NCBI GenBank assembly: GCA_022709405.1
Contig: JAKLIV010000003.1
Span: forward strand, 1,883-65,882
DNA from: Spirochaetota bacterium
GTDB taxonomy: Bacteria; Spirochaetota; UBA4802; UBA5550
Reading direction: 5' to 3'
Length of the DNA: 64,000 nt
Below the pieces are notes generated by a model that saw nothing but the letters and a program-made list of their open reading frames with translations, made no database searches and was not told where the DNA came from. Every line of letters starts with the position of its first letter. Within the stretch, counting starts at the first letter, position 1. The position numbers and the translations under genes were made by a program. Positions 14,454 to 16,117 of this stretch are shown here, piece after piece.

Positions 14454-15071
14454 CTAGTTTTTCATATCTTGTGTTGAATTCATTTCTTTTTGTGCAAGAC
14501 AAATACCGTAATGGGTAAGATTTAGTTTTATACATAACTCGTCAATAATTAAAAGAATATCCAATAGATGTTTATCGCTTTGTTCATCAAAATTATTAAT
14601 AATATCATTTAAAGCCAAGTGATATACAACCCCTCCTGTGTAAATAATATTCGCATTATTAAAATATTTATTAATTGCAGAAATAATCCGCCCAGAATCA
14701 GCTGCCTCAGAAGGATCTAATTCAATCAATTTATTTTCATTGATTCTATTCATTTTAGATGGCAAATAAACATCAGTTTCTTTCGGATCAATCAAATACT
14801 TGGTATTATAAAATGCTTGTCGAATGTTTGATGCTATTTCTAATTGTTCATCTGAAAATTGAAATCGTGATGCACCGATATAATCATCCATATAAAAAAA
14901 ACCGCCAGGTTTAAGTATATTTTTGCTCCACTCAACTGCTTTCTCCGAATCAAGCATATGGTGTAATGAATTATTCCAATGAACTAAATCATACAATTCT
15001 CTTTCTTTAACAATTTTTAAAGCATCTCCATGAATAAAACTAATACGATTATCTAGAGACTTTTTTTTTAT
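14454..15071 (-). pseudogene. 5'-truncated class I methyltransferase (lacks SAM-binding motif I)
   Basis: The open frame begins right after a stop at 15072-15074: IKKKSLDNRISFIHGDALKIVKERELYDLVHWNNSLHHMLDSEKAVEWSKNILKPGGFFYMDDY... It holds only motifs II-IV. The first in-frame start is a TTG at 14996. The upstream space is occupied by the 3' end of the 15068..16117 gene. Confidence 0.55.
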
Positions 15072-16117
15072 TTATTTTTTTCATGGTTTATCCACTTCAA
15101 ATAACGCAATTTTGCCATTATTAAGATATCTCTTAATATTTGAACCGGCATAATAATCATCTTTCCTATACGGTATGTCCTGCTTTTATATAATCTGTTA
15201 ATTATTTCATCCTTTTTTTTTAATTCAACAATGTAGTTATGCATCTCAGCATCAATATTTCTAATACCTAATGATTTGCCATTACCAAGACAAAGAACAT
15301 CTTTACCTGTTTTTTGAAAAATTTCCTCTGCCTGCCCAGGATTACTCTCTATAAAAAGCGTCTCGGATCTGTTCTGATAAACTTCAGCTTTAAACCGACC
15401 GTGAGCCTTTTGCCTGATTCGTTCCTCCTTGCTGGGTAAATTAAGCATAATCACTTCGCCATATTGTATGTTATATTTTTCCAACCAACCCTCTGTTTCT
15501 TTTCTATATTTTTCCAACCTGGAAGTAACAAAGCATGACACTGGAACTGTTGGGATATGGATAGGTTTTGCATTGTTTAAGAAATCGAGATATCTTGGAC
15601 CATCATCATTCTCTTCTTCTGTTGGGTCATGACAAATCACCCCATCTATATCCACACAGGCATTATTAAGTCTGGGGTGATGCATCAAATTCCATTCAAA
15701 AAAACGGAGTTGAGGCACTACCTCAAAAAAAATATCCACCAACTTTTCTCTACCTGGCACAATATATACACACCCATATAATATTTGATGAGATTCTATT
15801 ATATTGCATTGAGATACTCTGTGTCTAACATCAGTTAATGCAGCGCCTGAATTTACAGAATCTTCTATTATTATTACTTTTTTAATTTTCTCCCAGTTAA
15901 AATTTTGCTCCTTACCTCTTAGCCCGCTTCCCCATATTTTACCGGAAAGATATGAATCAATATCTGCAACCGGTTTATTCATTAGCAATCCTATGATCAC
16001 CGCGGGAAGCATGCCACTTCTTGGATTTCCGACAATCAAATCTACATTTGTATTAATTTTATAGATATTATTAATAATATCTCTACATAAATCACTATAT
16101 GATTTATAATAAACCAT
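15068..16117 (-). CDS. Fusion protein: type I phosphoribosyltransferase domain + HAD-family (NT5C-like) phosphatase domain
   Basis: N-terminus: 'VDLIVGNPRSGMLPAVIIG' and PRPP loop 'KKVIIIEDSVNSGAALTDV'. C-terminus: HAD motif I 'CVDIDGVICHD', motif II 'FVTSR' and a later 'K..AEVY / FIESNPGQA'. The tail 'SRTYRIGKMIIMP' resembles 'SYTWRLGRVV' of the neighbouring 807-aa GT. Confidence 0.7.
   Translation of the reverse strand: MVYYKSYSDLCRDIINNIYKINTNVDLIVGNPRSGMLPAVIIGLLMNKPVADIDSYLSGKIWGSGLRGKEQNFNWEKIKKVIIIEDSVNSGAALTDVRHRVSQCNIIESHQILYGCVYIVPGREKLVDIFFEVVPQLRFFEWNLMHHPRLNNACVDIDGVICHDPTEEENDDGPRYLDFLNNAKPIHIPTVPVSCFVTSRLEKYRKETEGWLEKYNIQYGEVIMLNLPSKEERIRQKAHGRFKAEVYQNRSETLFIESNPGQAEEIFQKTGKDVLCLGNGKSLGIRNIDAEMHNYIVELKKKDEIINRLYKSRTYRIGKMIIMPVQILRDILIMAKLRYLKWINHEKNK

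Follow-up and report, generated by a model that had tools for sequence, protein, structure and literature searches.

How a phosphoribosyltransferase (PRT) fused to a haloacid dehalogenase (HAD) phosphatase might take part in building a bacterial glycan is the question raised by an open reading frame (ORF) in a 64,000-nucleotide stretch of DNA from a Spirochaetota bacterium (contig JAKLIV010000003.1), referred to below as the window. The preliminary description of this stretch had proposed that the encoded protein may perform, on a classical type-I PRT fold, the same two-step chemistry dependent on phosphoribosyl pyrophosphate (PRPP) that installs ribofuranose (Ribf) in Klebsiella O antigens, and had called this an independent, undescribed solution. 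Our analysis supports the classical fold and the independence, but not the word “undescribed,” as the related gene wbaM has already been assigned to the transfer of β-Ribf (PMC7685785, PMC10132075). The reading that we favor, with a probability of roughly 0.68, is that the protein is a two-domain ribofuranosyltransferase of the WbaM family, acting at the cytoplasmic face during the assembly of a glycan exported by an ABC transporter.

The ORF was confirmed, and the coordinates of its domains and motifs are collected in Table 1. The sequence hallmarks reported earlier were all found in the 349-aa translation. These comprise the pyrophosphate (PPi)-loop region DLIVGNPRSGMLPAVIIG and the PRPP-binding loop VIIIEDSVNSGAALTDV in the N-terminal half, DIDGV and VTSR in the C-terminal half, and the tail motif SRTYRIGK, which has its counterpart SYTWRLGR in the neighboring protein. 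The description as a type-I PRT joined to a HAD domain is correct, and the HAD domain belongs to a divergent, cap-poor subtype.

The fold of the N-terminal half was explored with the single sequence, with its family, and with a structural model. Alone, the query matched Pfam PF00156 at an E value of 0.0017 (18.1 bits, under the gathering cutoff of 26.3), and its best PDB sequence match was a Sulfolobus purine PRT (E 0.004). Such single-sequence matches are subthreshold, and the PRT and HAD assignments become firm only with family information. PF00156 was matched at E<=1 by 52 of 53 full-length homologues (best 1.2e-11), and the family profile matched the Sulfolobus purine PRTs GpT-1 and GpT-2 among the PDB sequences at an E value of about 1e-8. 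The AlphaFold2 model of the whole protein has a mean predicted local distance difference test (pLDDT) score of 89.6, and its top 50 Foldseek matches were all xanthine-guanine (XGPRT), hypoxanthine-guanine-xanthine (HGXPRT), or orotate (OPRT) PRTs, with E values from 7e-8 and target template modeling (TM) scores of 0.58 to 0.70. The family-level matches and the predicted structure thus confirm the N-terminal half as a classical type-I PRT domain.

This domain shares with the classical purine PRTs (XGPRT of E. coli and Y. pestis, GpT-1/2 and HGXPRT of Sulfolobus, and 1VDM of P. horikoshii) the fold, the PPi loop, a PRPP loop with vicinal acidic residues, a flexible loop, and a C-terminal F-x-W segment. 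The WbaM-type family departs from these enzymes by the lack of a salvage context, by a constant fusion to a HAD domain, and by the family-specific invariant residues R138, N143, and D128. Its presumed acceptor differs too, as a hydroxyl group of a sugar takes the place of the purine nitrogen. None of the curated salvage equivalogs (adenine [APRT], xanthine [XPRT], and orotate PRT) was reached in NCBIfam, where the best scores were 15 to 16 bits against cutoffs of 115 to 188.

The C-terminal half gave no match in single-sequence searches of Pfam, NCBIfam, and PDB. Among 54 family members, no Pfam model covers the HAD domain, and only faint matches to LNS2 and HAD_SAK_2 were obtained. Since the 50 matches listed for the full-length model in Foldseek all fell on the N-terminal domain, the C-terminal domain was modeled and searched separately. 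Residues 141 to 290 modeled alone reached a pLDDT of 92.9, with the HAD motifs at the expected strand ends and helix. The best fold match was the HAD domain of the T4 Pnkp 3′-phosphatase (probability 1.00, TM 0.56/0.58, E 7e-3), followed by other minimal-cap HADs, namely, plant VSP, the LNS2 domain of Nir2, Pnkp1, and lipin/Pah. With these the domain has in common the DxDG[TV] nucleophile motif and the minimal cap, but the match is weak, with an E value of 7e-3 and about 14% identity, and motif IV is E-S. Motifs and model together confirm a predicted divergent, minimal-cap HAD-like domain. Minimal-cap HADs typically act on polymer or lipid substrates, and T4 Pnkp removes phosphate from the terminal (deoxy)ribofuranose of a polymer.

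Homologues of this protein are numerous. A word-indexed search returned at least 2,940 of them, an exhaustive HMMER scan of 50%-identity cluster representatives gave 2,278 matches at E<=1e-3 (837 of them at E<=1e-30), and a pattern scan using one genome per species found the family in at least 583 genomes. It ranges over Bacteroidota, Rhizobiales and other Alphaproteobacteria, Spirochaetia, Deltaproteobacteria, and Clostridia. Query residues 3 to 280, approximately, make up the conserved module, which always includes both halves, PRT and HAD being fused in all 150 top representatives.

Conservation was assessed from an alignment of 54 members and from 152 modules, which come from 150 representatives with pairwise identities of no more than 50%. 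In the PRT half, the essentially invariant residues are G30, P32, R33, S34, and G35; D or E at position 85, D86, S87, S or T at position 90, and G91; D128; and R138, F140, W142, and N143. In the HAD half, they are D156, D158, G159, V160, Y176, T198, R200, R205, K243, E257, and S258. The query carries all of the family-invariant active-site residues, each of which is kept in 94 to 100% of the 152 modules, except at the degenerate positions 85 and 90, where any single residue is less conserved. Position 85 is D in 142 modules and E in 10, whereas D86 and N143 are each found in 150 and G91 and W142 in 151. Such near invariance in both active sites argues for enzymatic activity of the two halves.

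The module is also found within larger proteins. The length exceeds 450 aa in 61 of the 150 top representatives (about 40%), and of 16 long representatives that were scanned, 14 are fused to GT2, GT4, GT8, WbsX, RgpF, TOD1/MUCI70, TupA-like ATP-grasp, or methyltransferase modules. Whole PRT-HAD modules in tandem occur in 2 of these 16, P0121 (628 aa) and P0122 (640 aa), which may add two consecutive ribose residues.

The link between this family and Ribf comes from E. coli and Shigella. When 5,426 complete E. coli genomes were searched at the DNA level with low stringency, the region of HAD motifs I and II was matched in 11 of them. The matching gene occupies a site between galF and gnd, and the neighboring wzy and wzx genes carry the annotation “O105 family.” The O105 protein aligned with the query by BLASTP at 41% identity over 258 aa (E 6e-61), with all motifs intact. 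A more divergent copy is present in the O183 cluster of 2 genomes, and in the 5,426 genomes the family members are confined to these two O-antigen clusters. Both the O105 and the O183 proteins match the query-centered family hidden Markov model (HMM) over the full length of the model (E about 1e-106).

D-Ribf is found in only nine E. coli serogroups, O105 and O183 included, and O183 differs from O169 by a β-D-Ribf-(1→4)-GlcA side branch (PMC7685785). O169 has the same backbone, and it has neither a wbaM-type gene nor Ribf. Other E. coli serogroups with Ribf are O5, O54, O114, O153, O178, and O185. The probability that both gene-bearing serogroups would fall by chance among the nine that contain Ribf is about 0.002 (hypergeometric test), taking the E. 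coli serogroups to number roughly 185 in total. No nucleotide-activated form of Ribf is known, and wbaM of O183 and of Shigella boydii type 10 was assigned as a putative phosphoribosyltransferase for β-Ribf transfer in a review that cites Senchenkova 2005 (PMC7685785). Moreover, the rfb clusters of S. boydii types 6 and 10 differ solely by an insertion sequence in wbaM of type 6 (PMC10132075). Taken together, these observations show a genetic association between the family and Ribf in E. coli and Shigella. WbaM (S. boydii type 10/E. coli O183) and the O105 homologue belong to the same family as the window protein and have the same two-domain architecture. They serve Wzx/Wzy pathways and a side-branch Ribf, whereas the window gene lies in an ABC-transporter pathway with a Wzt carbohydrate-binding module and encodes an extra coiled-coil tail.

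The entry of ribofuranose into bacterial polysaccharides was settled between 2022 and 2025 for one family, gPRT-PRP (CriT-CrpP). All characterized ribofuranosyltransferases belong to it, with an N-terminal HAD phosphatase (PRP/CrpP) followed by a C-terminal gPRT/CriT, and its members include ORF5 of K. pneumoniae O4 and ORF7 of O7, the Thermobacillus composti protein 7SHG, CriT-CrpP of Bcs3 from Haemophilus influenzae type b (Hib), Salmonella STM0726, and the M+C part of Campylobacter jejuni Cj1432. The profile of the WbaM family retrieved neither Bcs3 (8A0C) nor 7SHG from the PDB sequences at E<=10. In the positive control, residues 357 to 914 of Cj1432 (sequence taken from a paper supplement) matched Bcs3 at 2.7e-45 and T. 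composti 7SHG at 1.8e-13. Alignment of the WbaM family with the same Cj1432 M+C segment by hhalign gave a probability of 0.2%, no Cj1432-like sequence was found in the window or in 91 fetched loci, and no gPRT-PRP homologue was found in the O105 or the O183 cluster of E. coli. Membership of the PRT-HAD protein in gPRT-PRP was thus rejected, as no sequence relationship was detectable with a control that worked. By profile and by hhalign, the WbaM family is unrelated in sequence to the gPRT-PRP enzymes of Klebsiella, Thermobacillus, Hib, and Campylobacter.

The two families also differ in their construction. The WbaM type places the PRT before the HAD domain, whereas the order is PRP and then gPRT in the known family. 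Its acidic ribose-binding pair is contiguous (E/D85-D86), whereas D680 and E818 of CriT lie on separate loops, and its HAD cap is minimal, whereas that of PRP is helical. The helical-bundle domains of CriT have no counterpart, the C-terminal tail being the sole helical extra of the window protein. The lack of sequence relationship, the reversed order, the contiguous acidic pair, and the missing helical bundles therefore point to an independent solution rather than to a divergent gPRT-PRP member. By analogy, the proposed chemistry would be alike, with PRPP as the donor, transfer of Ribf-5-phosphate to a glycan, and removal of the 5-phosphate by a HAD-type phosphatase to leave β-Ribf. Alike too are the occurrence as stand-alone proteins or inside multi-glycosyltransferase polymerases and the locus logic of K. 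pneumoniae O7.

To assess the genomic context of the family, homologue loci were examined. All 7 annotated contexts were polysaccharide loci. A Bacteroides homologue is accompanied by Wzy, glycosyltransferases, a pyruvyl transferase, and Wzx; one from Sinorhizobium by Bac_transf, a GMC oxidoreductase, and Wzx; one from Spirochaetia UBA5763 by Wzm, Wzt_C, methyltransferases, DegT, a sulfotransferase, and GT2; one on a metagenome contig by DegT, GT2, GT4, and RgpF; and one on the Paracoccus plasmid pMARC4 by a Wzx-like gene, glycosyltransferases, and a UDP-sugar dehydrogenase. A census of the two nearest genes on each side, covering 123 proteins from 31 genomes and run as a Pfam batch, replaced a low-sensitivity phmmer census made with window-protein probes. 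The most frequent Pfam families were Glyco_trans_1_4 (31), Glycos_transf_1 (27), Glycos_transf_2 (22), Wzy_C (13), Polysacc_synt (11), and PS_pyruv_trans (7), and no nucleotide-salvage family was among the 25 most frequent of this census. The assignment to glycan loci thus extends to the family, whose members are almost always in such loci or fused to glycosyltransferases, with none in a nucleotide-salvage context among those examined. The homologues did not fall mostly outside glycan loci, nor did they cluster with salvage PRTs.

Some recurrent arrangements were observed in these loci. In many Bacteroidota (L008, L012, L017, L024, L029, L047, and others, at about 7250-13400), a five-gene order is strongly conserved, with PRT-HAD preceded by genes for proteins of ~490 aa and ~395 aa and followed by genes for ~400 aa and ~385 aa. 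Most of the flanking genes in the census encode proteins of the Wzx/Wzy type or of GT1/GT4, and the arrangement thus suggests a repeat-unit cassette that is mobile or conserved. In rhizobia (Sinorhizobium fredii L003-L005, 6069-8996; also L010, L027, and L052), a 485-aa GMC-family oxidoreductase and a ~147-aa ORF precede PRT-HAD beside Bac_transf and Wzx, which raises the possibility that the ribose is oxidized or epimerized after transfer. On plasmid c of Rhizobium etli IE4803 (L090, 756-16146), the family is represented by a 439-aa protein whose gene is flanked by one of the caspase family and by another that encodes a 758-aa GT28-family protein. At a distance of about 10 kb, a cluster of UbiA, GtrA, FAD-oxidoreductase, and SDR genes resembles a polyprenyl-phosphate pentofuranose pathway (of the decaprenylphosphoryl arabinose [DPA] type), so two PRPP-dependent glycan systems may coexist on this plasmid.

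In the window, the PRT-HAD gene lies within a low-GC block (about 29-36% GC, 8 to 24 kb) that encodes GT2 and GT4 glycosyltransferases, several methyltransferases, a DegT aminotransferase, a formyltransferase-like protein, an ATP-grasp protein, and Wzt with Wzt_C. The combination of Wzt and Wzt_C marks the locus as an ABC-transporter-dependent, terminator-gated glycan pathway. The start codon of PRT-HAD is 14 nt past the stop of the upstream gene, which encodes the 807-aa dual-GT2 partner. The layout of this partner, GT2-coiled coil-GT2, is by analogy that of a putative polymerase/terminator “molecular ruler” scaffold. There is precedent for a coiled-coil polymerase-terminator scaffold in K. 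pneumoniae O7 and O12, and in O7 a coiled-coil GT2-GT2 protein is combined with a stand-alone Ribf-transferase and with a Wzt carbohydrate-binding module that reads the terminal modification (PMC11231755). The architecture of the window locus matches this polymerase-terminator design of O7.

The helical tail (residues 286 to 349) sets the window protein apart from most of the family, being found in the closest homologues only, which also sit in Wzm/Wzt loci. The pattern S-x-[ST]-[WYF]-R-[ILVM]-[GTS] has only two occurrences in the six-frame translation of the window, both of them just after a coiled coil, one in PRT-HAD and one in the adjacent dual-GT2 protein, and the tails of these two neighbors align at an E value of 0.003. 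We propose that the tail is a docking or membrane-proximal element. The coiled coil of the partner is encoded by a tandem repeat of 21 bp x 16.1 copies (17341-17679, 95% matches) that specifies perfect heptads (KDEQIKQ/KVEQMNQ). Gain or loss of repeat copies at this place could alter the glycan length between strains, if the coiled coil is a chain-length ruler.

In the mechanism that we propose, the PRT domain would bind Mg-PRPP through the GxPRSG loop and the contiguous E/D-D-S-x-x-S-G loop, as the fold, the motifs, and the family genetics suggest. It would then transfer ribose-5-phosphate, with inversion, to a sugar hydroxyl at a growing or branching position, giving a β-linked Ribf-5-phosphate. 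The minimal-cap HAD domain would remove the 5-phosphate, with D156 as the predicted nucleophile, D158 as the general acid/base, and T198, K243, and E257 completing the site. This step is inferred from the motifs, from the analogy with gPRT-PRP, and because the O183 product is unphosphorylated. The product would be a β-D-Ribf residue that neighboring glycosyltransferases could extend, and the β linkage agrees with inverting transfer from α-PRPP. More speculatively, the S-x-T-Y-R-I-G segment of the helical tail might dock the enzyme to the coiled-coil dual-GT2 scaffold, as in K. pneumoniae O7, and W142 of the R-x-F-x-W-N motif, which aligns with F-P-W-D of GpT-2, might stack on the acceptor sugar as an aromatic platform.

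Other activities have been considered for this pair of domains. The PRT could phosphoribosylate the glycan and the phosphate be retained, or the HAD domain could act on another phospho-intermediate, such as a terminal phospho-group read by the Wzt module, so that the product would be a phosphoribosyl or other cap. Such a role would suit a terminator-gated Wzt_C locus with many methyltransferases, known terminators include methyl-phosphate groups, and the closest fold relatives of the HAD domain are phosphatases of polymer or lipid phosphates, not specifically sugar-5-phosphatases. We nevertheless find such a product unlikely, since fusion of the two domains in 150 of 150 top representatives, with both sites invariant, points to coupled consecutive steps, O183 of E. 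coli has plain β-Ribf, and the family is also present in Wzx/Wzy loci without terminator logic. The acceptor here could instead be a nitrogen or some other nucleophile; the amino group of a DegT-derived amino sugar, for instance, would then receive an N-ribosyl decoration. In favor of this, the closest relatives by structure are the purine PRTs, whose products have N-glycosidic bonds (C-N chemistry is typical of classical type-I PRTs), and DegT aminotransferase, formyltransferase-like, and ATP-grasp genes share the operon-like block. The O183 member makes an O-glycosidic bond, β-Ribf-(1→4)-GlcA, though, many contexts of the family have no aminotransferase nearby, and the acceptor-side motif R-x-F-x-W-N is kept throughout these contexts, which leaves an N-linked product quite improbable.

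The two remaining alternatives take the enzyme away from direct transfer to the glycan. It could be a soluble polyprenyl-phosphate-ribose synthase, which would add ribose-5-phosphate to undecaprenyl phosphate for dephosphorylation by the HAD domain and use by a periplasmic GT-C. This is the logic of the three-component systems of UbiA-type PPPRS and PRP (ORF15 of C. youngae, the Rv3806c pathway of M. tuberculosis), where, as proposed for the WbaM type, PRPP is the ultimate ribose donor and a 5-phosphatase follows. The lipid-phosphate phosphatases among the fold relatives of the HAD domain (lipin/Pah, LNS2) and the gene of R. etli about 10 kb from a UbiA-GtrA-oxidoreductase-SDR cluster of the pentofuranose type would agree with it. 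In those systems, however, an integral-membrane UbiA acts on polyprenyl phosphate and is followed by a flippase and a periplasmic GT-C, none of which is fused to or required by the WbaM-type family, and the linkages are mainly α, whereas that of Ribf in O183 is β. Pfam gives the PRT-HAD protein only PF00156, without a match to UbiA or to any other membrane-protein family, and the model comprises two globular domains and a helical tail (transmembrane topology was not predicted explicitly). In addition, the module is fused to cytoplasmic glycosyltransferase modules of polymerases, and no UbiA-, GtrA-, or GT-C-annotated genes are present in the O105 and O183 clusters of E. coli. On the protein architecture and the gene content of the E. 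coli clusters, a UbiA-like lipid acceptor was rejected, and we regard it as very unlikely. Database names such as “hypoxanthine/orotate phosphoribosyltransferase” and the weak best PDB match to purine PRTs would suggest nothing more than a PRT of nucleotide salvage or of the ComF-like type, paired with a nucleotidase and located in the glycan locus fortuitously or to supply precursors. This is hardly credible for a family that, across phyla, consistently has glycan-assembly genes as its neighbors and fusion partners, which stays at 15 to 16 bits in the salvage models of NCBIfam, and whose invariant motifs are absent from salvage PRTs; the context census effectively refutes it.

Several points weigh against a WbaM-type ribofuranosyltransferase. 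The source organism is uncultured, so D-Ribf in its glycan is only predicted. The evidence for the HAD domain consists of motifs and of a fold score that is modest (E 7e-3), and motif IV is E-S instead of the usual acidic pair. The link in E. coli concerns two serogroups only, the identity of which comes from the annotation of wzx and wzy by the Prokaryotic Genome Annotation Pipeline (PGAP). Well-studied rhizobia carry the gene, yet ribose is not a well-known component of their characterized polysaccharides. The statement that the function of wbaM was confirmed is second-hand, in one sentence of a review (PMC7685785). In the searchable literature, which did not reach Senchenkova 2005 and Kelly 2022, no biochemical datum was found for any member of the family.

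The link of this family to Ribf at the level of the gene is not new, as it dates to wbaM in 2005, and its core function is anticipated by existing annotation and genetics. What we did not find in the same literature is recognition of WbaM-type proteins as a fusion of a type-I PRT and a HAD domain unrelated to gPRT-PRP, recognition of a large cross-phylum family that is often part of giant polymerases, or any two-step PRT and HAD enzymology or structure for these proteins. Part of this gap may be only apparent. Published screens took PRP or gPRT sequences as their seeds, and our tests show that such seeds would miss the WbaM-type family.

We hold it slightly better than an even bet that PRPP-dependent ribofuranosylation of glycans has evolved a second time by convergence, in the WbaM-type PRT-HAD, which would combine a classical purine-PRT-like fold with a Pnkp-like minimal-cap HAD, and that in this locus the enzyme is recruited through its tail to a coiled-coil ruler protein. 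Were this true, the breadth of the family would make ribofuranose or pentofuranoses derived from it much commoner in bacterial surface glycans than structural databases suggest. A demonstration of the two-step chemistry would reveal convergent evolution of an unusual non-Leloir glycosyl transfer. Capsules and O antigens that contain Ribf, including those of gut Bacteroides and rhizobia, could then be predicted with a second sequence marker, and glycoengineering would gain a compact 280-aa module. The gene in the window can be annotated as a probable WbaM-type ribofuranosyltransferase of an ABC-transporter-dependent glycan.

Table 1. Coordinates in the window of the PRT-HAD gene, its predicted domains and motifs, and neighboring features
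Feature	Position	Strand	Basis or remark
WbaM-type PRT-HAD gene	15068..16117	-	349 aa + stop codon, ATG start
Classical type-I PRT domain, N-terminal (residues 1-147)	15677..16117	-	GpT-1/GpT-2 profile match, Foldseek, PF00156 in homologues
PPi-loop region DLIVGNPRSGMLPAVIIG (residues 26-43)	15989..16042	-	G30, P32, R33, S34, G35 nearly invariant in family
PRPP-binding loop VIIIEDSVNSGAALTDV (residues 81-97)	15827..15877	-	Contiguous acidic E85-D86, then S87, S90, G91
Family-specific motif R138-x-F140-x-W142-N143	15689..15709	-	Alignment with Sulfolobus GpT-2 F-P-W-D segment
Minimal-cap HAD-like phosphatase domain, C-terminal (residues 148-285)	15263..15676	-	Model, fold match, invariant motifs
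HAD motif I DIDGV (residues 156-160)	15638-15652	-	
HAD motif II VTSR (residues 197-200)	15518-15529	-	
HAD motif III K243	within 15383-15397	-	
HAD motif IV E257-S258	within 15341-15355	-	
Lineage-specific helical tail (residues 286-349)	15071..15262	-	Helices 290-311 and 313-348 in AlphaFold model
SRTYRIGK (residues 312-319), in helical tail	15161-15184	-	
Adjacent partner, 807 aa: GT2, heptad coiled coil, SYTWRLGR, GT2	16132..18555	-	Pfam: two GT2 domains
SYTWRLGR motif, partner residues 424-431	17266-17286	-	
Wzt ABC-transporter ATPase with C-terminal carbohydrate-binding module	23974..25392	-	PF00005 + PF14524 Wzt_C
IS256/Mutator-family transposase	9511-10755		
HepT-like toxin gene	25410-25883		At cassette boundary
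AbiEii-like toxin gene	26499-27164		At cassette boundary
AAA_14/DUF4143 ATPase	27947-29227		At cassette boundary

The surroundings of the gene differ in base composition. The glycan cassette that contains PRT-HAD (about 8000-27000) has 29-36% GC, versus 50-57% in the adjacent glycosyltransferase block (28000-38000). With the transposase and with the toxin and ATPase genes at its boundary (Table 1), the low-GC cassette looks like a horizontally acquired island.

The window encodes two Wzt ATPases, each with Wzt_C, the one listed in Table 1 and another at 39525-40976 (-), which suggests that two glycan systems with ABC transporters are adjacent here. For the low-GC Wzt system, no clear Wzm permease was identified in the window. 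The ORF at 37675-38433 (252 aa, no Pfam match) might be the permease of the second system.

Within the cassette, a 180-aa ORF (14454-14996, -) located 71 nt from the stop of PRT-HAD matches S-adenosylmethionine (SAM)-methyltransferase profiles only in their C-terminal part (about positions 61-119 of the profile). This ORF is probably either a remnant that has lost its N-terminal part or one with a miscalled start. The joint presence of a GDP-mannose 4,6-dehydratase (4528-5619), a DegT-family aminotransferase (21748-22869), and a formyltransferase-domain protein (20481-21584) recalls the pathways of GDP-perosamine and N-formyl-perosamine, and the glycan may contain an N-acylated 4-amino-6-deoxyhexose. 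A GT2 gene at 12720-13535 (-) also carries a tandem repeat, of 15 bp x 4.1 copies (13411-13472), that encodes (PLESK)4 near the N terminus.

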